NCBI GenBank assembly: GCA_001543005.1
Contig: LFLB01000022.1
Location: 243,956-307,955, forward strand
Reading direction: 5' to 3'
Origin: Candidatus Spongiihabitans thiooxidans
Lineage (GTDB): Bacteria > Pseudomonadota > Gammaproteobacteria > Arenicellales > Poriferihabitantaceae
DNA: 64,000 nt
Shown here: piece after piece, positions 7,016 through 49,549 of the stretch
How positions within the stretch are numbered: position 1 is the first letter of the stretch
How the letters are laid out: each line of letters opens with the position of its first letter
The notes under the pieces: generated by a model
Databases searched by the model: none
Told to the model about the DNA's origin: nothing
Seen by the model: the letters and a program-made list of their open reading frames with translations, nothing else
Position numbers and translations under genes: made by a program

Positions 7016-7378
7016 CTAATCCACCCTGCAAGAATTCTAATTTTTCGTCCCGATAATTTACCGGGGTGTTTAATTACGTGGTCGGCAGCAAAGTCAAATA
7101 ATCCCATTCATTCCCCACAGGTTTTACATTATCAAAAGCCAACTTTAACATTTTAAATCGATATTTTCTACCCGTAGCCTCTTCTCCAATGTGAAATGAG
7201 TCTGAAATGGGCTGATTTCTGTTCATGATGGGGAATCAATACCCACATGAACAACACCCTTCCCCTTTTTGATCTGAGAAAAGAACAGGTTTGCGAGGGT
7301 GAAACGCGGAGCCGTTTAAAATACCGAATTTGGATACGGTTAGCTCGGTATCAAAAAAGCGGAATCCTGCAATCTATA

Positions 7379-7407
7379 TTGACTGAACACCACGATGCCA
7401 TTACACT
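7379..7407 (+). promoter_or_regulatory. Candidate sigma70-type promoter for the cas operon
   Basis: TTGACT (7379-7384), a 17-nt spacer, then TACACT (7402-7407), about 45 nt upstream of the cas9 ATG. Sequence match only. Confidence 0.3.
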
Positions 7408-7452
7408 GTTTGGCGGTTCAACTTTGAATTACTTAGTCGTCAGGAGAAAAAA

Positions 7453-10400
7453 ATGAAAATAATTTCACCCATTGCGATTGACATGGGGGCAAAGAATACG
7501 GGGGTTTATCTTAACCACTTTGAACAAGGGGAAGATCCAACCACCAGCGGCAATATAGCAGGAAAGACGATTGTTATCGACAGCAGTAAAATCACTTGGT
7601 CGCAGGCTGGTCGAACGCAAAAACGTCATCAAGTTAGGGGTAATAAACGCCGAAAACTTGCGAAACGATTAATAAAAGTAATTTTAAAATCGCACTATGA
7701 ACTTGACATAGAGGAAAAGCAATTAGAGTTTTTAATGGGATTGCTCAACCGACGAGGCTACAATCGCATTGAACTAACACCGGAGCAAGAAGAAGTTTTA
7801 AGTACCAAAGCGGTTACTGAGTTCTTCTTTCCGCGCCTTTTTACTGAGCCAAGCACTGGCGTTTCGCTTTTGGATGGGCTGTCCGATAGAGTTATTATTA
7901 AAAACAAGGATAACCAAGACTATTGGAAAAGTGTTTTAAAAGATGATGTTTTCTCTTTGTCTGGAAAACAAAACAAAGAGTTTAAGGACTACTTAGCCCT
8001 TCATGACAAGGGAAAGGATAAAGATGAAATAGCAGATCTTTCCAAAGCGTTCACTGCAATCAAACAAGTTATTGGAAAGCAAATAGAAAATTATGATAGC
8101 GGTCATTTGCACCGCAGAGACTACTTGGAAAACATCAAGAAAGATGTACAAAATGAATTACTTAAATCTTTGCTGAGCGGCGATTTAACTGCCGAAAAAT
8201 TGTCCTTCCTGATTGGAAATGTTAGCAATCTGCAACTCAGAGTTTTACGAAAATATTTTAACGATTATGGTATGCAGTCAGGCGACAAGTGGGCACCAGA
8301 CAAACTGCACGAATTCTTTTTTAAGTGGGTAAGAAGTTGGCATTGTAAGCAGGATGATGAAAGAACGAACCAAAGGACTCTATTGGCTCGGAAGGGAAAG
8401 GACATTCTCGAAGTGTTCACCACATCTAACCCCGAGCTAAGCATCCCGCCATATGAAGACCAAAACAATCGGCGACCGCCGAAGGATATGACCTTGCGAT
8501 TAAAACCAAAAGGTTTAGATAATAAATTATCCAACTGGGAAAGTATTACTCGGTCATTGGTTAAGAGTTATTGTATGCCCCAAACCGAAAAAAATATTAT
8601 AGAACCTGTATGTATTCAAAAAAACCTGAAGGATAATGTGCGCCCGCAAAAGATAAAGGGCGAGGTCCAAGACACTGAACAAAGGCAAATACTAGCGGAT
8701 ACACTGCATCGTATTTTAGATCGAACCATTAAATTAGATCCTTACAAGTTGCGGTGGCTTAGTGAGGGGAGCAAAACCGATGAAGCGCAAAAAGCAAAGG
8801 AAGTATTGAACAGGCATAGCGAAAACAAAGCCGACGCTATTATCGATTTTGCAAAAGAATATTACGATGAAGTGGATATTGCGAAACAGGGTTTGTGGTC
8901 GGATAGTGAACAGAGTTTGTTTTTTAGATGTAATACCAATCCGCCTCATAAAAACAAGATTCAGCATAACCTTATTAGTCATATTTTGGGCGAAAATTTA
9001 AATGAACAAAGATTAAGCTACTTTGTGGATGACTGCTGGAATGAAAAAATAGGACGTTTAACCATTAAGGGCATTGCTAAAAAAACGGAAGAAGAACGCA
9101 AAAAATACGGCAACCGTTTTAAACATTTGGTGCAAAGACAAGTTTGGTTAAATAAACAAGGTGACAGGGAATTAGATAACGAAAGAAAGCATGGTGTTAA
9201 TGGCAAAGTTATTTTAGAAGTTCATGAAAAGTGTTTAAAAGCAACTGATAAAATTGCCGAATATTTTACGCACAATGATAGAAAGAAAAAGATTTATGCC
9301 AATGTTTTCAGCATGGCGCAACTTTACAATATTTTAGAAACCAATATTCGGGGATTTAGTAAAACTGATAATTGGAACACGATTGAAAACGCATGGCGTT
9401 CACGGAAAGATGACGCGGATGAACAAGGCGAGTATATTGCCAATGCTGTCAGGCTAACGGCTGATAGCATTCGCCCGTTTGATGGCATGCTGGACAGGAT
9501 TATCAGTCGTCAAGCCTATGAAATAGCTGGTATGAAAATCCAACAAATTGGAAACTTAAAGATTGATACAAATGATACTTTGTTTGTGCCTATTTTTATG
9601 GAGCAAAACCGTTTTTCATTTGAACAAAGTTTGCATGAAATAAAGGGCTTAAAAAATGTTAAAAAGAAAGCTAAAGAAAGAGTAGAAAAAGGCTTAAAGA
9701 AACAAAAAACACAATGGCAAAATAAAGACGATAGAATTAAGAAAAATAAATATTGTCCTTACACTGGCGGGATTATTGGCAAAGGTGAAATTGATCATAT
9801 AATTCCACAAAGTGAATCCAAAAAGCGCGGTGATGTGGTGTTTAACTCCGAGGCAAATTTAATTTATTGCTCTGGAACCGGCAACCATACAAAAGGCAAT
9901 GTTAGATGGACATTTGAGCAATTACACCCTAACTATTTAAACGAAGTTTTTGCAGGTGAAACCAACATAAAACAAACCATTATTGATTTTGTAAATGGTT
10001 TGGATGAAAACGATCCGATTAGTTTTCATAATTTAGAGGGAAAAGAGCAAAATTATTTACGCCACGCCCTATTTATTTCAGATTTAGACAGTAAAACTTT
10101 TCCAATCCTCAACACCCGATATAAAACTTTTGTCAATGGAACGCAAGGCTATCTTGGTAAGAAAATCCGAAAATTGTTGCAAGATAAATACCCAAATGTA
10201 GAGATAAAAACCTATCAAATACCAGCTCAAGAAGTCAGCCAATTACGAAAAGTTTTGGGTAGTCTTGACAAAACCTCTAAAAAACAAGATATACAAAGTG
10301 CTTTTTCACATGTGGTGGATGCTTCATTGGTGTTAGCCACTGCTTTGCAAAACCCTAAAATAGCCGAGGAATTGCAATCCACTAATGTAACTGAACTCAG

Positions 10401-12126
10401 TGAACAAGGGCAGTGGTTAAAAGCTTTATTGCCCACTCATGCAGATGTCCAACACATTGAACGCAAGCCAAAATATCGCAAAAACTTATCCTCTACGCAA
10501 ATTTTTAAAGAGGGTTTGTATGGCGAGCGGTTTATGCCGATTTTGTTAGACAATGAAAAACTGTATTATGGTTTTTCTTTGGACAATTGCCATGAAATTG
10601 AACCATTAAAACAACCAAAAAATCACAGCAAAGACTTTGACAAAAAAGTACTGACAGTCAAAGAAAAACAATTAGTAGCACATAATAAATATTTTGATTT
10701 ACTGAAAGAATTTTTATACACAGGTTCGAGCAGAAGGAAAAATAAAAAACCAGTTACTGATAGCATGCAAGATAATCAGGACAAATATTCATACTTATCC
10801 ATTGATACAATAAAGGCACTCAATCATCTGCAAAAGTGCGCCAAAGAGGTTTGCGATACCCGGGCAACAGAACAAGCAAAAAAATTGGAGAAACTTCGTT
10901 ATAGCGTGGAAAAGAAAAACATTAAAAACGTTTTACTGCAAGGACGAGGCAGACGCACTTTTATCAAACAATTAGACGATAAAAAATTTAAAGTATCAAA
11001 GTTAACACTACCTGCAAAAAAAGATTGGGAGCGATTAATAAACCACCCAATAATTGATTATCAAGGCAATAAGGTAACATTAAAAGAATGCTTTGACAAA
11101 CCAGAACAAGTGGAAATTGATAATCCAAAAATGGTTAATTTTTGGCAAGATTTATCGCAAGAAAGCGGTTTTAAAATTGAATATTTAAAAGATAATTTAC
11201 TTAAGAAAAATGACAAAGGAGAATTTTATAAACAATTGGGCATTATTCCAAAAGGTGTTTTTGACCAAAAAATCAAAACAATGAAGTTGTTAAAACCACT
11301 TGCAAATAGTGCATTACTCGAACAATCTTTTGGTGTTGAATTTAAAACAATGACTGATTTAATCCCTCAAGAAAGCTGGGATAAGTTATTTGAAGAATTT
11401 TTCCACACTAACAAAATTAAAAATAACAACTTCCATAAACAAGTCAGAAAAGATTACTCTTTGCCTGAGGTTTCTGCACCGTCTGGAGGGTTTAGAATTC
11501 AGCGCAAGAATTCACTAACAAATGAAACAATTTACCAAGTGAGCGCGATTGCTGACGGCGGATATGCATGTGGTTTCGCCAAGAAAAAAGACGGTAGCAT
11601 TGATATGAGTAAGAATGGAGTTACATTTAATCCTGCCTTAAAAGCGAGCCGTAGGACCGCCTATATTGGCAAGTCTGGAAAACCATATATTCATAAAGAA
11701 TCGGATAGTACTGAGGTGGAGTCATTCGGGAGTTCCCGAGAGGTTGCACTTAGTTCCGAAAGTGTATTGAAATGCCGCCTGACTTTGGCGGAAGCGAGCA
11801 GAATTGATGTTGCGATTACCATTTCTAACGATATATTCAAGAAAATAATAGAATTTTCAAGCGAGGATATTGATGTTTCTCAACCACCACCCGATTTTTC
11901 TATAAAATTTACGAAAAGCAATGGTGGAAGAGAAGAACATGACAAATTTAAAGAATTTTTGAATGCCATGAACATACCAACTCCGCGGGAGGCTGGAAAC
12001 CCACAGAGGTGGGCGTATAAGTTTGAGGTCCAAGCATCGCAAGATACGGTTGTTTTGTCATACAGAACATCCATGACAGCAGAATTAAAAACAGCTTACC
12101 TGAATGGCACGCTAGTAAATGATTAG
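7453..12126 (+). CDS. cas9: Cas9, type II-B (large Francisella/Legionella-like form)
   Basis: 1557 aa. RuvC-I PIAIDMGAKNTGV (D10); Arg-rich bridge helix RTQKRHQVRGNKRRKLAKRL; RuvC-II FVPIFMEQNRF (E717); HNH GEIDHIIPQS...NSEANLIYCS...GNHTKGN (D781-H782); RuvC-III SHVVDA (H953/D956). The N-terminus closely resembles what I recall of F. novicida Cas9 (MNFKILPIAIDLGVKNTGV...). RBS AGGAGA lies 7 nt upstream. It is followed by cas1-cas2-cas4 and an array. Confidence 0.95.
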   Translation: MKIISPIAIDMGAKNTGVYLNHFEQGEDPTTSGNIAGKTIVIDSSKITWSQAGRTQKRHQVRGNKRRKLAKRLIKVILKSHYELDIEEKQLEFLMGLLNRRGYNRIELTPEQEEVLSTKAVTEFFFPRLFTEPSTGVSLLDGLSDRVIIKNKDNQDYWKSVLKDDVFSLSGKQNKEFKDYLALHDKGKDKDEIADLSKAFTAIKQVIGKQIENYDSGHLHRRDYLENIKKDVQNELLKSLLSGDLTAEKLSFLIGNVSNLQLRVLRKYFNDYGMQSGDKWAPDKLHEFFFKWVRSWHCKQDDERTNQRTLLARKGKDILEVFTTSNPELSIPPYEDQNNRRPPKDMTLRLKPKGLDNKLSNWESITRSLVKSYCMPQTEKNIIEPVCIQKNLKDNVRPQKIKGEVQDTEQRQILADTLHRILDRTIKLDPYKLRWLSEGSKTDEAQKAKEVLNRHSENKADAIIDFAKEYYDEVDIAKQGLWSDSEQSLFFRCNTNPPHKNKIQHNLISHILGENLNEQRLSYFVDDCWNEKIGRLTIKGIAKKTEEERKKYGNRFKHLVQRQVWLNKQGDRELDNERKHGVNGKVILEVHEKCLKATDKIAEYFTHNDRKKKIYANVFSMAQLYNILETNIRGFSKTDNWNTIENAWRSRKDDADEQGEYIANAVRLTADSIRPFDGMLDRIISRQAYEIAGMKIQQIGNLKIDTNDTLFVPIFMEQNRFSFEQSLHEIKGLKNVKKKAKERVEKGLKKQKTQWQNKDDRIKKNKYCPYTGGIIGKGEIDHIIPQSESKKRGDVVFNSEANLIYCSGTGNHTKGNVRWTFEQLHPNYLNEVFAGETNIKQTIIDFVNGLDENDPISFHNLEGKEQNYLRHALFISDLDSKTFPILNTRYKTFVNGTQGYLGKKIRKLLQDKYPNVEIKTYQIPAQEVSQLRKVLGSLDKTSKKQDIQSAFSHVVDASLVLATALQNPKIAEELQSTNVTELSEQGQWLKALLPTHADVQHIERKPKYRKNLSSTQIFKEGLYGERFMPILLDNEKLYYGFSLDNCHEIEPLKQPKNHSKDFDKKVLTVKEKQLVAHNKYFDLLKEFLYTGSSRRKNKKPVTDSMQDNQDKYSYLSIDTIKALNHLQKCAKEVCDTRATEQAKKLEKLRYSVEKKNIKNVLLQGRGRRTFIKQLDDKKFKVSKLTLPAKKDWERLINHPIIDYQGNKVTLKECFDKPEQVEIDNPKMVNFWQDLSQESGFKIEYLKDNLLKKNDKGEFYKQLGIIPKGVFDQKIKTMKLLKPLANSALLEQSFGVEFKTMTDLIPQESWDKLFEEFFHTNKIKNNNFHKQVRKDYSLPEVSAPSGGFRIQRKNSLTNETIYQVSAIADGGYACGFAKKKDGSIDMSKNGVTFNPALKASRRTAYIGKSGKPYIHKESDSTEVESFGSSREVALSSESVLKCRLTLAEASRIDVAITISNDIFKKIIEFSSEDIDVSQPPPDFSIKFTKSNGGREEHDKFKEFLNAMNIPTPREAGNPQRWAYKFEVQASQDTVVLSYRTSMTAELKTAYLNGTLVND

Positions 12127-12853
12127 TGCCATCAACCCCAACCGCCAAAAAGCCCTGTTCCTTGCTAAAAAACAACTCCCTGAATTGGTATGCGATGCGG
12201 TGAACTTGGAGGGAGTGAACTTTACCCTGCCAGAGATACAAACCTTGCTGGACGGGATAACAGTGGGCGGGCATAGTTTGCAGGATGAGACGATTGCGCT
12301 TAATCAGGCCAATGCCTGGCGGTTTTTGTTTGATTGTGTTGAGCAAGACAGGTTTGCTCTTTCCAAAGATTTTGTTTGCGAATTGCACGGGATTCTTGCC
12401 CAGAAAGAAGCGCTGACCTGGGGTGTTTTCAGGGACGGCGGCGTAACCATTGCTGGCACCAATCATATCCCGCCGAGAGCGGACAAATTACCGACCTTGT
12501 GGCAACAGTTGACGGGAAAACATCATCCCGCCTTGCTACAATCAGAGATGCGCCAATCTAAGATAGACATCGAAAAAATAGACATCGAACAAATTTATAC
12601 CTGCGCTATTAGTTTATTTTTGCAAATGGCAAGGATGCAGTTTTTTTACGATACTAACAAACGCCTTGGGCGACTGATGATGAACGGCATTTTATTGGTA
12701 AACGGACTGCCCGCCATTAATCTGCCCGCTAAAAAACAGCTTGCATTTAATCAACTGATGCTGGATTTTTACGCCAGCGACGATGAGCAGCCAATGCAGC
12801 TTTTTATGCGTGCTTGTTTAGAGAGAAAAATTCTAGAAATAATGTCGGAATAA
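12119..12853 (+). CDS. Fic/Doc-fold-like protein with a degenerate catalytic motif, embedded in the cas operon
   Basis: 244 aa. Its ATG overlaps the cas9 stop by 8 nt, and its stop lies 5 nt before the cas1 ATG. Fic-like landmarks are NLEGVNFTLPEIQTLLDG and ELHGIL...GVFRDGGVTIAGTNHIPP. At the HxFx(D/E)GNGRxxR position it has QFFYDTNKRLGR (aa 174-185, nt 12638-12673). Confidence 0.75.
   Translation: MISAINPNRQKALFLAKKQLPELVCDAVNLEGVNFTLPEIQTLLDGITVGGHSLQDETIALNQANAWRFLFDCVEQDRFALSKDFVCELHGILAQKEALTWGVFRDGGVTIAGTNHIPPRADKLPTLWQQLTGKHHPALLQSEMRQSKIDIEKIDIEQIYTCAISLFLQMARMQFFYDTNKRLGRLMMNGILLVNGLPAINLPAKKQLAFNQLMLDFYASDDEQPMQLFMRACLERKILEIMSE
12563..12592. repeat. 15-bp x 2 in-frame tandem duplication inside the Fic/Doc-like ORF
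   Basis: atagacatcgaaaaa / atagacatcgaacaa (1 mismatch), encoding KIDIE-KIDIE. Confidence 0.9.
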
Positions 12854-12858
12854 ACTTC

Positions 12859-13845
12859 ATGCACGCCCACATAACGCTTACCGAATACGGCCAATTCATC
12901 GGTATAAAGAGTGAGTGTCTAACGGTAAAAGAGAACGGCACGGTCAAGGAATATCCGCTTAATCGCCTAAAAAGCATTCAGATCGCCAAGCAAGGCATCA
13001 GTTTTTCCTCGGATGTTATTATTGCTTGCGCTAATCGCGGCATTAAATTCTTCTTGTCTGATTTCAAGAATGAAATTATCTCTTGTCTTTCAGGCACACA
13101 GCAACACGCTGTTGTGCGCGTTCGGCAAAAGCAGTTCACATTTGTAAACAGCCCAAGCACGGCCATATTATCAGCCATTGTCATTGAGGGGAAAATCAAG
13201 AACCAACGCGCAACTCTGCTTTATTTTAAAAAATACCATCAAGACAAAGCCGCGATAATAGAAAAAACCGCCGAGCAATTAAAAACAATCTTACGACAGA
13301 TAAAAACCAAAGACTGGCAGAAATATGATCGCTGGCGAGATATTTTATTGGGGTTGGAAGGGCAAGCGGCCGCTCAATATTGGCAGTGTCTGGTTGAGAC
13401 AAATCTGATGCCGGATGATTTTAAGGGCAGGGTGGGCAGGCAAGCGCAGGATATTGGCAACAGGAGCTTAAATTACGGTTACGCCATCCTCACATCTTAT
13501 GTTTGGAATGCCTTGATCAATGCGGGCTTGGAGCCTTACGCCGGGTTTTTTCATGTCCAAAGAGCAGGCAAGCCGTCTTTGGTGCTTGATATGATGGAGG
13601 AATATCGCGCTTGGGCAGTGGATCGAAATATCATCAAGCACAGAGGTGTTTTGCGGGACAAAAACGAACTTACACCAATCATTAAAAAACAAATCATCAC
13701 CGATATTCATAAAACATTTTCCACTAAATATCATTATCACAAACGAAAAATACGATTGGAAAGTATTTTGCAAAGACAAATTTATCACTTGGCAGGCACA
13801 TTCGCGGGTGACAGGAAATACAAAAGCTATTGGTTCAGATGGTGA
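12859..13845 (+). CDS. cas1: Cas1 integrase
   Basis: The track ORF is 12814..13845. I prefer the ATG at 12859 (MHAHITLTEYGQFIG...). Cas1 landmarks: LLGLEGQAAAQYW, NRSLNYGYAIL, GFFHVQRAGKPSLVLDMMEEYR. Confidence 0.9.
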   Translation: MHAHITLTEYGQFIGIKSECLTVKENGTVKEYPLNRLKSIQIAKQGISFSSDVIIACANRGIKFFLSDFKNEIISCLSGTQQHAVVRVRQKQFTFVNSPSTAILSAIVIEGKIKNQRATLLYFKKYHQDKAAIIEKTAEQLKTILRQIKTKDWQKYDRWRDILLGLEGQAAAQYWQCLVETNLMPDDFKGRVGRQAQDIGNRSLNYGYAILTSYVWNALINAGLEPYAGFFHVQRAGKPSLVLDMMEEYRAWAVDRNIIKHRGVLRDKNELTPIIKKQIITDIHKTFSTKYHYHKRKIRLESILQRQIYHLAGTFAGDRKYKSYWFRW

Positions 13846-13849
13846 AGCC

Positions 13850-14158
13850 GTGGCGCAAGTAAAATTATACAATGAGGTTTTAGTAAGTTACGACATAGCC
13901 GATACCGGGCAGCGCACAAAACTGTTTAATAAACTGAAAGACATTAGCCTGACTTCAATACAAAAATCAGTATTTTGGGGGCATTTAAACAGGGCGGAAG
14001 AAACCAGCGTTAAATATTTATTGAAAACTTATTGCGCTAAAACGGATAAAGCCTTCATTGCCCGAGTCAAATTATCCGAACAAATCCAGCAGAACAACAG
14101 CGTGGGTTATGAGAAACAGGATTTCCCCCAATATTCCACAAGCTACCATGTCATATAG
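13850..14158 (+). CDS. cas2: Cas2
   Basis: The frame of track ORF 13646..14158 overlaps cas1 upstream. The Cas2 core LVSYDIADTGQRTKLFNKLKDISLTSIQKSVFWGHL begins just after cas1 ends. The most plausible start is the GTG at 13850, but this is uncertain. Confidence 0.75.
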   Translation: MAQVKLYNEVLVSYDIADTGQRTKLFNKLKDISLTSIQKSVFWGHLNRAEETSVKYLLKTYCAKTDKAFIARVKLSEQIQQNNSVGYEKQDFPQYSTSYHVI

Positions 14159-14726
14159 CTTGCCCATTAGTTTGCTCAGGCAATATTGTTTTTGTCCAAG
14201 AATTCCGTATTTTCAAGAATTGCTAAAACTCAATCCGCCCAAACCAGTGTGGGTCAAACAAGGCGAGGATTTGCACAAAGGCCAGGAAAAGATATTCAAA
14301 CACAGAACCTTAAAACGTTTTAACTTAGTGCAAGCCAAACAAGAATTCAATGTGTTTGTGAGCGCCGAAGAGTTGCAATTACACGGCATGGTGGATAGCC
14401 TGCTGAACAGCAACGAAGAAATCTACCCCATTGAATTCAAATTAAACGGGCACAAACCAGTCAAAGGGCAAATATTGCAACTCACCGCCTACGCTATGGT
14501 CGCGGAATACCAATACAACTTGCCTTGCAGACAGGGATTTATCCTTTTTGAAAATAAAGGCAAGACCCATCCGATAGTGTTCAAACTAAAGAACAAAGAA
14601 CAGGTGGTTATCATTCGGGACCAGATATTGAATGATTTAGAAAAATCCTATCTGCCGGATAGTCCGGCAACCCCAGCGCAATGCACGCAATGCGAATACT
14701 TAAATCATTGTAACGACAGAAGTTGA
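14148..14726 (+). CDS. cas4: Cas4 (RecB-like nuclease with Fe-S cysteines)
   Basis: The internal ATG at 14148 overlaps the cas2 stop. MSYSLPISLLRQYCFCPRIPYF (N-terminal Cys), IEFK (nuclease motif), and C-terminal CTQCEYLNHC. The presence of cas4 defines subtype II-B. Confidence 0.88.
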   Translation: MSYSLPISLLRQYCFCPRIPYFQELLKLNPPKPVWVKQGEDLHKGQEKIFKHRTLKRFNLVQAKQEFNVFVSAEELQLHGMVDSLLNSNEEIYPIEFKLNGHKPVKGQILQLTAYAMVAEYQYNLPCRQGFILFENKGKTHPIVFKLKNKEQVVIIRDQILNDLEKSYLPDSPATPAQCTQCEYLNHCNDRS

Positions 14727-14806: not shown

Positions 14807-14896
14807 GGTCAGATTTTACAACATGTCCAAGTTGATTCATCTTTATTTTAGATGATTTCAGTGCATCGCTTACTAGGTTATGATGTATCAGCACAG
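14766..14896 (-). ncRNA. tracrRNA: tracrRNA candidate
   Basis: Minus-strand 14891->14855 reads CUGAUACAUCAUAACCUAGUAAGCGAUGCACUGAAAU. It is collinear with the complement of the crRNA repeat over all 37 nt: 30 Watson-Crick pairs, 3 G-U pairs, and a 4-nt internal mismatch patch. Then come the hairpin CAUCU-AAAAUAA-AGAUG and a terminator with a U6 tail. The segment AUGCACUGAAAUCAUCUAAAAUAAAGAUGAA...GGAC resembles the F. novicida tracrRNA scaffold as I recall it (AAUGCUCUGUAAUCAUUUAAAAGUAUUUUGAACGGAC). The ends are approximate. Confidence 0.7.
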
Positions 14897-15016: not shown

Positions 15017-17581
15017 CCGACACATCATAACCTAGTAAGCCAGCAACTGAAACCACACTGAGTGACTCACCTGATACGATCTCGCGAGCCGACACATCAT
15101 AACCTAGTAAGCCAGCAACTGAAACATGTTTATGTTAAATTTATGCAGGTCTATATTTTCCCGACACATCATAACCTAGTAAGCCAGCAACTGAAACCTG
15201 ACTAGATGACTGGCACCAACACCAACACCAGCCGACACATCATAACCTAGTAAGCCAGCAACTGAAACCTATCGGGCGTGGCGCATTTGTCCCGCTCCGG
15301 ATATCCGACACATCATAACCTAGTAAGCCAGCAACTGAAACGTCTTGACTCAAGTTGAGGAGCCTCCCACTTGCCCCGACACATCATAACCTAGTAAGCC
15401 AGCAACTGAAACGCCCACTGGCACACTGGCACACTGGCCCACTGGCCCGACACATCATAACCTAGTAAGCCAGCAACTGAAACCAATTTCCGCATTTGTA
15501 TTAATCTCAAGTGCGCGCCGACACATCATAACCTAGTAAGCCAGCAACTGAAACCAAAACTTCATGCGCTGCAAGTCCGAGGTGCGAGCCGACACATCAT
15601 AACCTAGTAAGCCAGCAACTGAAACATAGACAATCCCATAGTCTCAGCTATATAAGTATCCGACACATCATAACCTAGTAAGCCAGCAACTGAAACTCAG
15701 TCCCCGAATTCCTTGCTCGCTTGGCGGCGCCCGACACATCATAACCTAGTAAGCCAGCAACTGAAACCTCACATTAATTCAGCTGGCGCAGCAACATATT
15801 TCCGACACATCATAACCTAGTAAGCCAGCAACTGAAACAGAGTCGCGACACTGAACAGCAGTTGACATTCTCACCCGACACATCATAACCTAGTAAGCCA
15901 GCAACTGAAACAGGTCGGGATGATGGCTTTTGTCCAGCGGGACTTTGCCGACACATCATAACCTAGTAAGCCAGCAACTGAAACTGCAAAAATCGACTTT
16001 GATTAAGAGAGCCTTTTCTCCGACACATCATAACCTAGTAAGCCAGCAACTGAAACATCACAGTGACTTCGGTATGTGGCGCGTTGTATGCCGACACATC
16101 ATAACCTAGTAAGCCAGCAACTGAAACTTCCAATGGAGTGAGGAAAAAGGGCAGGAATAATCCGACACATCATAACCTAGTAAGCCAGCAACTGAAACGC
16201 ATAAACCGCCGCGAAAGATTCACTTTTTAAATCCCGACACATCATAACCTAGTAAGCCAGCAACTGAAACATTATATTCTACGTCGAATTCTGGCGTGTG
16301 AATGTCCGACACATCATAACCTAGTAAGCCAGCAACTGAAACCTCAATCTGAGTTCCATAACGCCAAATTGAAAATACCGACACATCATAACCTAGTAAG
16401 CCAGCAACTGAAACCCAGGGGATCGACGCCTTGCCGGTCGGCGGCGCCCAGCCCATTTTTTGCCGACACATCATAACCTAGTAAGCCAGCAACTGAAACA
16501 CAAGGCTCCATGCAACTCTATGGCCAAGCCTCAACCCGACACATCATAACCTAGTAAGCCAGCAACTGAAACCTGCGGCAAGCATTATACGCGCATACTC
16601 GCTATTGCCGCCGACACATCATAACCTAGTAAGCCAGCAACTGAAACTTATGGGAATCCCCATATACCAGTCTCCCGCTCACCGACACATCATAACCTAG
16701 TAAGCCAGCAACTGAAACAACTCATTGATTTTTATAGATTGTGTCATTTTTTGCCGACACATCATAACCTAGTAAGCCAGCAACTGAAACCAAGCTGGAC
16801 ATTGGTTTCTTCTGGATCAAAATCCGCCGACACATCATAACCTAGTAAGCCAGCAACTGAAACTGCGCGCCGCGGTAAATGCGACGGCGTGTTCTTGTCC
16901 GACACATCATAACCTAGTAAGCCAGCAACTGAAACGTTCGGCGTGTAATGCGAGTCCCACCAAGCATCGTCCGACACATCATAACCTAGTAAGCCAGCAA
17001 CTGAAACCCCATTGCTGCGCGGCGAGGATTAGTTTTTTTCCGCCGACACATCATAACCTAGTAAGCCAGCAACTGAAACCATTTTCATGCTATGCAATTA
17101 GATTTGCTCGACGCCGACACATCATAACCTAGTAAGCCAGCAACTGAAACTTTGGGTGTCTGCTCCCCGCCGCCACAACATAGCCGCCGACACATCATAA
17201 CCTAGTAAGCCAGCAACTGAAACAATCCCGTGGCGAGAATTTGCACAGCGGAATTAAACCGACACATCATAACCTAGTAAGCCAGCAACTGAAACCCGAC
17301 GCGGCAGCAGTAGAGTTACTAAATAATCGCCGACACATCATAACCTAGTAAGCCAGCAACTGAAACTCAAAATAGCCCCGGCGAATTTTCGGCGTCATGC
17401 CCCGACACATCATAACCTAGTAAGCCAGCAACTGAAACCAAGCGTTGAGAAGTTTCAATTCTGCAAGAATGCACCGACACATCATAACCTAGTAAGCCAG
17501 CAACTGAAACTTCGTAACAGCCTCTGTTTTTCATGCCCACATAACCGACACATCATAACCTAGTAAGCCAGCAACTGAAAC
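15017..17581 (-). CRISPR. CRISPR array, 36 repeats of 37 nt and 35 spacers (34-38 nt, one of 48 nt)
   Basis: The plus-strand repeat is ccgacacatcataacctagtaagccagcaactgaaac, identical in every one of the 36 copies I read (first 15017-15053, last 17545-17581). On the minus strand it begins GTTTCAGTTGCTG..., the same 5-prime repeat sequence I recall for the F. novicida II-B crRNA. Together with the tracrRNA strand, this indicates minus-strand transcription, antisense to the cas operon. Confidence 0.97.
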
Positions 17582-47741: not shown

Positions 47742-48965
47742 TCAAAAATCGGTATTGCGTTTTCTGTTTGCGGCAATACGAAGACGTAGCGCGTTCAATT
47801 TAATAAAGCCAGTGGCGTCCGATTGATCATAGGCGCCGGCGTCTTCCTCAAACGTCACAATTTTTTTGTCAAACAGTGAATCCGAAACCGATTGGCGGCC
47901 AAGCACATCGACATTGCCTTTGTATAACCGTATTTTAACTTCGCCGTTAACCGACTCCTGAGAGGCGTCAATCATTTTTTGCATCATCAATCGCTCCGGA
48001 CTAAACCAATATCCATTGTAAATCAATTTTGCATAGCGTGGCATGAGCTCGTCTTTCAAATGCGCCACTTCCCGATCCAGGGTCAGTGATTCCATGGCAC
48101 GGTGAGTTTTCAGCATAATGGTTCCGCCAGGGGTTTCGTAACAGCCTCTGTTTTTCATGCCCACATAACGGTTCTCCACAATATCGGCGCGCCCGATGCC
48201 GTGTTTGCACCCCAATGTATTGAGCGCGATCAAAACCCCAGCTGGGGTTAACGCCTTGCCATCGACTGTAGTGATGTCACCTCTGCTAAATCCAATAATT
48301 ACTTGTTCGGCTTTATCCGGTGCGTCCATGGGCGAAGTTGTCCAGCTCCATACCCGATCGTCCGGCGTCTGCCAAGGATCCTCTAACTCTCCGCCTTCAT
48401 GGGAAATGTGCAGTAAGTTGGCGTCGATGGAGTAAGGCGAACCGCCGTCTCTTTTCTTTTCCACTTCAATGCCGTGCGTTTCAGCATACGCCATCAATCT
48501 TTCCCGGGAAGTCAGATTCCATTCTCGCCAAGGCGCAATAATGCGAATATCGGGGTTTAATGCGTAGGCGGATAATTCAAAACGCACTTGGTCGTTGCCC
48601 TTGCCGGTTGCGCCATGGGCAATCGCGTCGGCACCGGTTTTGTGCGCGATTTCAACCAAATACTTTGCAATCAAAGGGCGGGCAATGGCGGTTCCCAGCA
48701 TATATTCACCTTCATACATAGTGTTTGCCCGAATCATCGGAAACACATAATCCCGGGCAAACTCTTCTTTTAAATCCTCGATAAAAATTTCCTTAATGCC
48801 GAACTTCTCGGCTTTTAGTCGGGCCGGTTCAAGGTCTTCCCCCTGACCAATATCCGCGGTGAAGGTCACCACTTCGCAGTTATATTGGTCCTGCAACCAT
48901 TTCATAATAATCGAAGTATCCAGCCCACCTGAATAGGCAAGCACCGTTTTACTTATCTCAGACAT
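47742..48965 (-). CDS. argG: Argininosuccinate synthase
   Basis: 407 aa: [44 protein letters not shown]. Confidence 0.97.
48135..48168 (-). other. Protospacer: exact chromosomal match to CRISPR spacer 35
   Basis: 48135-48168 (ttcgtaacagcctctgtttttcatgcccacataa) is identical in all 34 nt to spacer 17511-17544. It lies in the argG codons for [12 protein letters not shown]. Confidence 0.97.
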
Positions 48966-49008
48966 CTTGATTTGTATTATTGGTAGGAAAAGGGCAATTA
49001 TATCATTG

Positions 49009-49369
49009 CACCTGATACACGTTTATTTTAAAGGAAACGGCACGAGCCAAACTGAAAATACATAACTTGAATCCACGGTATCTTGTGCCCTATCTAAGAA
49101 TATTGTTAAAAAGGGGGCACCTAATACATGTTTATTTTAAAGGAAACGGCACGAGCCAAACTGAAAATACATAACTTGAATTCACGGTATCTTGTGCCCT
49201 ATCTAAGAATATTGTTAAAAAGGGGGCACCTAATACATGTTTATTTTAAAGGAAACGGCACGAGCCAAACTGAAAATACATAACTTGAATTCACGGTATC
49301 TTGTGCCCTATCTAAGAATATTGTTAAAAAGGGGGCACCTGATACATGTTTATTTTAAAGGAAACGGCA
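49009..49369. repeat. 109-bp tandem repeat, 3.3 copies, in the argG-argF divergent intergenic region
   Basis: Copies start at 49009, 49118, 49227 and 49336 (the last is partial, ~34 nt). Copies 2 and 3 are identical, and copy 1 differs at 3 positions. Each unit contains the imperfect inverted repeat ggcacgag...cttgtgcc, 35 nt apart. Confidence 0.95.
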
Positions 49370-49549
49370 TCGAGTATAGGCATGCTAAAAATCTTAAATA
49401 CATTGACGTTTATGCCCGATCTTAAGAAATATCATGAAAAAGGGTAGAAAATCATTGTCGTTTAAGTAAACTACACTGACAATAGGTGCCGGTTTATTGG
49501 CGTTTTTTGTTTACTTGCCAACAACAGGCCAGCAATAGAAATTACCGCC

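Follow-up and report, generated by a model that had tools for sequence, protein, structure and literature searches.

Why does a type II-B CRISPR-Cas operon (short palindromic repeats, clustered and regularly interspaced, and their associated genes) carry a gene of the Fic fold between cas9 and cas1? The type II gene set is thought to be small and fixed, consisting of cas9, cas1 and cas2 plus either csn2 or cas4. The question is raised by a 64,000-nt stretch of Candidatus Spongiihabitans thiooxidans DNA (contig LFLB01000022.1, positions 243,956 to 307,955; hereafter the window), in which an open reading frame (ORF) for a 244-amino-acid Fic protein with Gln at the position of the catalytic His, here called Q-Fic, lies between these two genes. 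Type II-B loci with this fifth, Fic-fold gene are present in public genomes, while no paper describing the arrangement was found. As detailed below, the order cas9-fic-cas1-cas2-cas4 was detected at 11 distinct loci in symbionts of sponges and of Bathymodiolus mussels, and Q-Fic was under purifying selection like Cas1 and Cas4.

Q-Fic is a genuine part of a type II-B operon

The genes of the operon in the window are as follows.

7453..12126, + strand: cas9, type II-B, Csx12-type, 1557 amino acids (TIGR03031 501.8 bits, cut-off 399.4; Pfam Csx12 431.5 bits)
12119..12853, + strand: Gln-type Fic gene (Q-Fic), 244 amino acids (Pfam Fic, AlphaFold2 model, Foldseek, dN/dS)
12859..13845, + strand: cas1, 328 amino acids (TIGR00287 193.9 bits)
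13808..14158, + strand: cas2, start uncertain (Pfam CRISPR_Cas2 38.9 bits; 116 amino acids in the gene calls of the source contig, L001, which is the window locus itself)
14148..14726, + strand: cas4, gene call of 192 amino acids (TIGR00372 98 bits)

Together with the CRISPR array and an anti-repeat, both also present, the Csx12-type cas9, cas1, cas2 and cas4 identify the locus as type II-B. The ATG of Q-Fic at 12119 overlaps the end of cas9 by 8 nt (stop codon at 12124-12126), whereas its own stop codon (12851-12853) is followed by a gap of 5 nt before the cas1 ATG at 12859, and the reading frames of fic and cas1 differ. These coordinates, like those of the active-site motif (nt 12638-12673), had been given correctly in an earlier account made from the letters of the window alone (hereafter the sequence-only reading). 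The Q-Fic ORF is a real gene and no chance reading frame, because its product matched the Pfam Fic model above the cut-off, had 1569 homologues in a search with the Q-Fic sequence, and showed ratios of nonsynonymous to synonymous substitution rates (dN/dS) of 0.03-0.15. Promoter and terminator consensus sequences occurred at background frequency, none of them prominent at the borders of Q-Fic, and carry no weight either way.

The arrangement was not confined to the window. One part of the cas-linked group comprised the window, L175, L004, L087, L176 and L007, and included metagenome-assembled genomes labelled Ca. Spongiihabitans and Halioglobus (L040, a near-duplicate of L007, was counted once), while the other comprised L015, L086, L033, L084 and L085, and included symbionts of Bathymodiolus, among them Ca. 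Thiodubiliella and the B. thermophilus symbiont. Among the 11 loci, Cas1 identity fell to 73% and that of Cas9 to 25-33%, so that Q-Fic holds a recurrent, conserved position in the cas operons of diverged loci. The cas9-fic junctions were ATGA or TAATG overlaps, or short gaps, in every lineage, and 0-14 nt separated fic from the ATG of cas1. The motifs AVNLEG and QFF[YH]DxNKRxGR were kept in all ten other cas-linked copies, and the dN/dS values calculated for the same pairs were 0.03-0.15 for Fic, 0.05-0.12 for Cas1, and 0.04-0.15 for Cas4. The suggestion of the sequence-only reading that the gene is a part of the operon rather than a one-off insertion was thus borne out by the recurrence of the arrangement, start/stop overlaps included. 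Inspection of the gene neighborhoods of homologues likewise placed fic repeatedly between cas9 and cas1 in II-B loci, and homologues were not restricted to non-CRISPR contexts, though most of the family is found there.

When metagenomes were scanned with Cas1 as the seed, 80 II-B loci were returned. Fic was located directly upstream of cas1 in 3 of the 3 loci whose Cas1 was at least 75% identical to that of the window, and in none of the 77 loci in which this identity was 58% or less. In a neighbor-joining tree of Fic sequences, all cas-linked copies fell into one clade. The best reading of these data is that a Fic lineage was captured once between cas9 and cas1, and was then inherited in a fic-cas1-cas2-cas4 block.

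A gene acquired in this way might be a mere passenger, i.e. a mobile single-gene cassette that landed between cas9 and cas1 and persists by linkage and co-expression, with no role in immunity. The family does act as a mobile cassette, being found on plasmids, in a cassette array and at variable chromosomal sites (see below). However, fic was kept in 11 of 11 loci while synonymous sites between the lineages became saturated, at a dN/dS of about 0.1, and the start/stop overlaps were maintained in each lineage. Moreover, a useless insert should, in an operon this compact, vary in its presence or absence, and no such variation was seen in the Cas1-seeded scan. We therefore regard a passenger as improbable.

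In the Ca. Thiodubiliella locus (L015, 5483-9998), the matches to cas9 came in several pieces and the longest ORF beside fic had 663 amino acids; fic, cas1, cas2 and cas4 were intact, and cas9 is either disrupted or contains assembly frameshifts.

Q-Fic follows Cas1, whereas cas9 has been exchanged

An all-against-all comparison of the cas-linked loci revealed pairs in which the proteins of the operon differed widely in identity. For L084 and L085, the identities of Fic, Cas1 and Cas9 were 95%, 99% and 33%, respectively; for L176 and L007, they were 95%, 97% and 31%; and for the window and L175, 95%, 93% and 63%. Cas9 was thus exchanged at loci in which fic, cas1, cas2 and cas4 are 93-99% identical (L084/L085, L176/L007 and window/L175/L004), leaving Cas9 identities of either 31-33% or 61-63%; the 89% identity of the L004 Cas9 to that of the window is limited to its first 74 residues. 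Two types of Cas9, about 30% identical to each other, each occurred in both sponge and mussel symbionts (the Cas9s of L176 and L085 are 59% identical to each other). Since both types are found in both host lineages, cas9 was replaced at least three times while the fic-cas1-cas2-cas4 block persisted.

These findings bear on possible partners of Q-Fic. A specific partnership with Cas9 is unlikely, because one Fic (95% identical) is paired with Cas9s that share only 31-33% of their residues, and the role of Cas9 modifier put forward in the sequence-only reading is accordingly disfavored, the same block being combined with Cas9s about 30% identical. The co-tracking of Fic with Cas1 fits a role together with the adaptation genes, though it is only mild evidence of function, because adjacency predicts the same pattern if recombination uses the conserved fic/cas1 flank.

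Such a role would make Q-Fic a dedicated accessory of the II-B adaptation module which, by analogy with Csn2 of type II-A, might control the acquisition of spacers by binding or modifying either Cas1-Cas2-Cas4 or a host factor that these need, and would hardly function away from the operon. This explanation is favored by the distribution of the gene (all II-B loci found above the upper Cas1 identity limit and 0 of 77 below the lower one), by its continued linkage to cas1-cas2-cas4 although cas9 was replaced at least three times, with identities congruent with those of Cas1, and by its closeness to the cas1 ATG and Cas1- and Cas4-like dN/dS. Set against this are the same flank-recombination argument and the life of the family outside cas operons, which is described below. 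We consider it possible, although on balance rather unlikely.

Q-Fic has a class II-like Fic fold with Gln at the position of the catalytic His

The only domain found in Q-Fic was Pfam Fic (PF02661, 35.2 bits against a cut-off of 24). An AlphaFold2 model built from 45 homologues had a mean predicted local distance difference test score (pLDDT) of 92.8, and its best Foldseek matches in the PDB were FICD (E 1e-9, TM-score 0.72-0.77), BT_2513 and CdFic; all 47 PDB matches at E <= 1e-3 were Fic proteins. Among PDB sequences, phmmer with Q-Fic as the query retrieved FICD at E 6e-6, whereas a search with the family profile gave FICD at E 5.5e-16, followed by C. elegans FIC-1 and the C. difficile Fic. 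The Fic fold proposed in the sequence-only reading was in this way confirmed, and its best structural matches are class II Fic proteins. Individual segments of the protein are listed below.

12197..12214, + strand: inhibitory-helix motif A27-V-N-L-E31-G32, class II type, aligned to FICD TVAIEGN
12419..12475, + strand: flap-equivalent segment W101-GVFRDGGVTIAGTNHI-PP119, aligned to FICD GRFRTTQVLVG-HHIPP
12560..12589, + strand: tandem duplication of 15 nt, in frame (KIDIE-KIDIE), within a loop of Q-Fic, read from the sequence
12638..12673, + strand: active-site loop Q174-F-F-Y-D178-T-N180-K181-R182-L-G-R185, aligned to FICD H363-PFIDGNGRTS-R374

The canonical motif of AMPylating Fic proteins is HxFx(D/E)GNGRxxR, with the class definitions as quoted in PMC5651007. 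In the HMMER alignment to FICD, the segment Q174-FFYDTNKRLG-R185 lay opposite HPFIDGNGRTSR, with Gln174 on the catalytic His. Compared with the canonical loop, Q-Fic has Gln for His and Lys for the second Gly, and thereby departs from the motif of AMPylating Fic proteins, while the inhibitory Glu, the metal-binding Asp, the Asn, both Arg residues and the motif Phe are kept. In the inhibitory motif (S/T)xxxE(G/N), Glu and Gly are retained and invariant, and Ala replaces Ser/Thr. The alignment of 45 sequences revealed that E31, F104, R105, I111, G113, P118 and P119 are invariant, as are the loop residues F175, F176, D178, N180, K181, R182, G184 and R185, with Q174 conserved in at least 90%. The flap-equivalent segment was modelled as coil (pLDDT 82-90). 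The KIDIE-KIDIE duplication was absent in the closest homologues and falls into the block of the model with the lowest confidence (pLDDT 65).

The sequence-only reading had noticed Gln at the catalytic position within a Doc-like D-x-N-K-R core, which the alignment to FICD reproduced, and had called the loop Doc-type. The latter claim holds for the loop alone: the whole protein is nearest to class II Fic proteins (FICD/HYPE), and the Doc model scored below its cut-off. No Doc protein was present among the Foldseek structural matches or the PDB profile matches of Q-Fic. The Lys that Doc has instead of the second Gly is associated with the chemistry of a kinase and not of an AMPylase.

Gln is the conserved state of a large Fic clade

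The loop Q-[FY]-F-x-[DN]-x-N-K-R-x-G-R was detected in 116 of the 120 best homologues, which were 55-93% identical to Q-Fic. A profile search of 1.84 billion cluster representatives returned 4529 matches at E <= 1e-3 (173 of them at E <= 1e-30), and in the best 150 of these 4529 representatives, the loop began with Gln in nearly all cases where it could be located, and with His in none. Q-x-F/Y-x-D-x-N-K-R-x-x-R is therefore a conserved hallmark of a large class II-like Fic clade, in which the Glu of the inhibitory helix (E31), the Arg that closes the motif (R185) and the segment equivalent to the flap are kept as well. Describing the motif as degenerate, as the sequence-only reading did, is misleading, since both samples identify Gln as the family state. 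Because the motif is so strongly conserved, it argues for a retained ligand- or target-binding site, and against a dead relic. The PDB profile search found no solved structure from the clade, none of the NCBIfam models covers it, and no paper on it was found in the literature search.

Most members of the family stand alone

A genome collection contained 430 relatives of Q-Fic. Only 6 of the 80 best genome loci had II-B cas genes within 10 kb, so that most of the family does not adjoin cas genes (74 of 80 loci were free of them at this distance). Clustering of the ORFs within 3 kb of fic in these 80 loci revealed no recurrent partner or antitoxin gene, and Pfam and PADLOC scans of 133 immediate neighbors of stand-alone copies gave 139 Pfam families, none of them in more than 6 loci. 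The neighbors include GrpE, RecA, RecJ and DsbD, as well as a few PIN and AAA_14/DUF4143 genes. Relatives were also found on 489 plasmids, with a Fic-resolvase pair on Piscirickettsia plasmids only, and, on a Vibrio megaplasmid, inside a cassette array that also carries toxin-antitoxin cassettes. Since it has no fixed partner and is found on plasmids, in a cassette array and at varied chromosomal sites, the family acts like a single gene that is complete in itself and moves horizontally. Phages as its main habitat were rejected, as only 4 phage records (23-30% identity) and 6 of 2.9 million viral contigs matched; PHROG 11900 was a good match to Q-Fic.

In Acinetobacter, the Gln-type Fic forms the C-terminal half of a fusion with a zeta toxin and has the loop QFTFEGEKRTAH. 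On plasmid pD4 of Acinetobacter baumannii (L173, 2017-3747), this fusion is a 500-amino-acid protein with an N-terminal zeta-toxin P-loop and a C-terminal Gln-type Fic-like domain, and a 75-amino-acid ORF abuts its start in a toxin-antitoxin-like layout. Among the matches listed, the fusion seems common on Acinetobacter plasmids, and 96 Acinetobacter records match overall.

Stand-alone copies also occur close to the cas-linked genes. In the neighbor-joining tree, stand-alone copies from sponge symbionts were nested inside the cas-linked clade. Three stand-alone copies (L002, L005 and L006, 90-91% identical) retain the Fic stop codon, then the spacer of 5 nt and then the beginning of cas1 (its first 15 nt), and their identity to the cas-linked loci ends abruptly after these 15 nt. 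They are remnants of a cas operon, with fic alone surviving intact. Another set of copies occupies a conserved site, GCV_T / fic / 333-amino-acid gene / M20 peptidase, in several Poriferihabitaceae, with dN/dS of 0.12-0.15. Since the stand-alone copies, including the cas-derived one, are intact and under constraint, they argue that the function of Fic is independent of neighboring cas genes. For a dedicated adaptation accessory this is unfavorable on two counts, as the overwhelming majority of the family stands alone, without cas genes in the vicinity, and the copies nested in the cas-linked clade are intact and constrained.

Other types of cas genes near the stand-alone copies L008-L012 were rejected, because the large flanking ORFs were metabolic (GCV_T/DUF1989 and M20 peptidase). 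In L178 (1434-5968), the GCV_T-type gene is separated from the stand-alone Fic by an inserted block of five genes, which lies just upstream of fic and encodes an AAA_15/AAA_21 ATPase, a product of 181 amino acids, an N6/N4 DNA methyltransferase, a DUF6996-DUF6997 protein and a product of 176 amino acids, whereas at the same site in L177 no genes were called between the GCV_T-type gene and Fic.

Proposed role of Q-Fic

We tentatively prefer the explanation that Q-Fic is a self-contained, self-inhibited Fic module which was captured once into the adaptation-side block of the operon; what it does biochemically we can only infer. In such a module, Q-Fic would be made with the Cas proteins from one transcript and would probably be held closed by a lock between Glu31 and Arg185, as in FICD, the salt bridge being suggested by the aligned residues. 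The Doc-like N-K-R loop probably binds a phosphate-bearing ligand, whereas a conserved cellular protein probably docks on the flap-equivalent segment. In Fic proteins, pairing of the inhibitory Glu with the last Arg keeps nucleotides from binding productively, and the Glu of FICD also supports de-AMPylation (PMC6408439; for the motif and class definitions, PMC5651007), and the Fic flap docks its target as an additional beta-strand (PMC5651007). The activity of Q-Fic would then probably be self-contained, i.e. that of a toxin-like or growth-arresting effector, of a regulator or of a sensor, and would probably not need the Cas proteins, because stand-alone copies, one of them derived from a cas operon, stay intact. 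Within the operon, Q-Fic may act as a companion of the adaptation genes, either as a second line of defense or by slowing growth while immunity is acquired or executed. Of the roles put forward in the sequence-only reading, that of an abortive-infection back-up and that of an accessory to adaptation may both apply. The replacement of His with Gln would imply a chemistry other than canonical transfer of AMP or phosphate, or binding only: canonical transfer without His is doubtful, and a binding-only role and a new chemistry are equally possible.

Several observations speak against a self-contained module. Gln is unable to act as the general base of Fic and Doc enzymes, which makes a toxin-like transferase uncertain, and a toxin-like activity of the Gln-type clade is itself a proposal from its sequences. 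The neighbors of stand-alone copies are mostly housekeeping genes rather than defense islands, and the PADLOC matches were weak. Furthermore, fic was present in every II-B locus of the subclade that was found and is tightly coupled to cas1, which fits a dedicated Cas accessory equally well, and this constancy is more than expected of an independent passenger. Finally, the purifying selection recorded in the stand-alone copy of cas origin may have acted before its cas genes were lost.

The dedicated accessory has a more far-reaching form, which we judge unlikely: Q-Fic might be a Cas component in its own right, the fifth in a new variant of II-B, which acts with Cas1-Cas2-Cas4, for example as a modifier or gate of the integrase complex or of a host factor, and in this way controls acquisition; the Gln-type active site, common to thousands of proteins, would then have a chemistry undescribed for the Fic fold. 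A fifth gene that is fixed in one branch of II-B and kept with the acquisition genes despite the exchange of cas9 points to an unstudied function in or alongside adaptation. The cas operon also provides a concrete biological context for a large Gln-type Fic family with thousands of members, and both questions are directly testable in a small, compact operon.

CRISPR array and other features of the window

Downstream of cas4, the window contained the following elements.

14868..14886, - strand: anti-repeat, candidate pairing segment of the trans-activating CRISPR RNA (tracrRNA), 19/19 nt against repeat positions 6-24 in reverse complement (E 6e-6)
15017..17581, no strand assigned: CRISPR array with 36 identical repeats of 37 nt and 35 spacers (repeat analysis)

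The anti-repeat between cas4 and the array is likely to be the tracrRNA pairing segment. Spacer 35 (17511-17544), the last in the array, matched argG at 48135-48168 over 34 of 34 nt (ORF 47742-48965, - strand, argininosuccinate synthase), and the + strand flank of this protospacer was CGG. The reverse complement of the repeat begins with GTTTCAGTTGC, like the CRISPR RNA repeat of FnCas9. If the array is read on the - strand, then spacer 35 is leader-proximal, i.e. the newest, and the 3' flank of its protospacer is ACC.

The self-match had led the sequence-only reading to suggest a brake, with Q-Fic restraining Cas9 so that the self-targeting spacer is tolerated. Beyond the existence of that spacer, we found no support for this idea, and several facts disagree with it: (i) the same Fic (95%) is paired with Cas9s 31-33% identical, (ii) fic is fixed across the subclade, whereas the self-targeting spacer is known from the window only, the other loci not having been searched for one, and (iii) the self-match may be uncleavable, depending on the protospacer-adjacent motif that the window Cas9 requires. 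An autoimmunity brake or Cas9 regulator is consequently highly improbable in our view.

The remaining features were incidental to Q-Fic. At 48 nt, spacer 20 (16415-16462) exceeds the remaining 34 spacers, which measure 34-38 nt. Upstream of cas9, an ORF of 69 amino acids (7247-7456), also called in the source contig, overlaps the cas9 ATG by 4 nt and had no Pfam match, and no counterpart of it was called upstream of cas9 in L175 and L176. The gap that separates argG from a gene for an ornithine/aspartate carbamoyltransferase contains, at 49008-49374, 3.4 tandem copies of a 109-nt unit (98% matches).

Comparison with known systems

The proteins most similar to Q-Fic in sequence and structure are FICD/HYPE, CdFic and BT_2513, with which it shares the core fold. 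Its likeness to class II Fic proteins extends to a putative N-terminal inhibitory helix with Glu-Gly, the Arg that closes the motif, and a flap-like stretch with PP at its end. It differs from FICD, to which it is 18-21% identical, by Gln for His, Lys for the second Gly, Ala for the inhibitory Ser/Thr, and the lack of a TPR or any other additional domain.

With Doc, the EF-Tu kinase of the Phd-Doc pair, Q-Fic has in common the D-x-N-K-R loop and Lys at the second Gly. However, Doc keeps its His, is about half the size of Q-Fic, and needs a separate antitoxin. The Doc model TIGR01550 gave a weak local match to residues 155-196 of Q-Fic (14.9 bits, cut-off 38.65), and given this score, Gln at the position of His and no Doc in the structure or profile matches, membership in the Doc family was rejected. 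Nor does Q-Fic belong to a class I Fic toxin-antitoxin module, since these have an adjacent antitoxin and no conserved partner was found in the 80 genome loci; in the cas operon, its neighbors are cas9 and cas1.

SoFic is a single-gene Fic-domain anti-phage system, for which abortive infection by AMPylation has been reported (PMC12249575), and it resembles Q-Fic as a single-gene class II Fic tied to defense. As a known case of defense by one Fic-domain gene, it speaks for the self-contained module preferred above. Unlike SoFic, Q-Fic has neither Fic_N nor a SoFic-like C-terminal domain, and it has Gln rather than His. The PADLOC SoFic model gave a weak, partial match (29 bits, E 1.6e-7), and assignment to SoFic was rejected. 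In a locus of the B. thermophilus symbiont (L084, 16011-19331), a SoFic-like gene (Fic_N + Fic + SoFic-like_C) and two ThsB-type TIR (Toll/interleukin-1 receptor) genes lie beyond the II-B array, so that a second Fic and a small defense cluster adjoin this II-B locus. PMC9789115 mentions a "Fic gene" beside the CRISPR array of a B. thermophilus symbiont, which is probably the separate SoFic-like gene seen downstream of the array in the related L084. The sequence-only reading was aware of no Fic/Doc accessory in type II CRISPR-Cas; our literature search found none either, and no paper in which a Fic gene was placed between cas9 and cas1.

Among CRISPR-Cas systems, the locus is closest to the canonical II-B loci of Francisella and Legionella, which have the same four cas genes in an identical order; also in common are a repeat of 37 nt with ACTGAAAC at its end and an anti-repeat located after cas4 and before the array. 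What sets the locus apart is the additional gene that follows cas9 and precedes cas1, and this gene is confined to the subclade whose Cas1 is 75% or more identical to that of the window. A precedent for such a fifth gene, specific to one subtype, is Csn2 of type II-A. The two have unrelated folds, and Csn2 has no large stand-alone family; like Q-Fic, though, Csn2 is no nuclease, and its gene is a fixed part of the adaptation side in one subtype of type II, so that by analogy Q-Fic may have a role in spacer acquisition.

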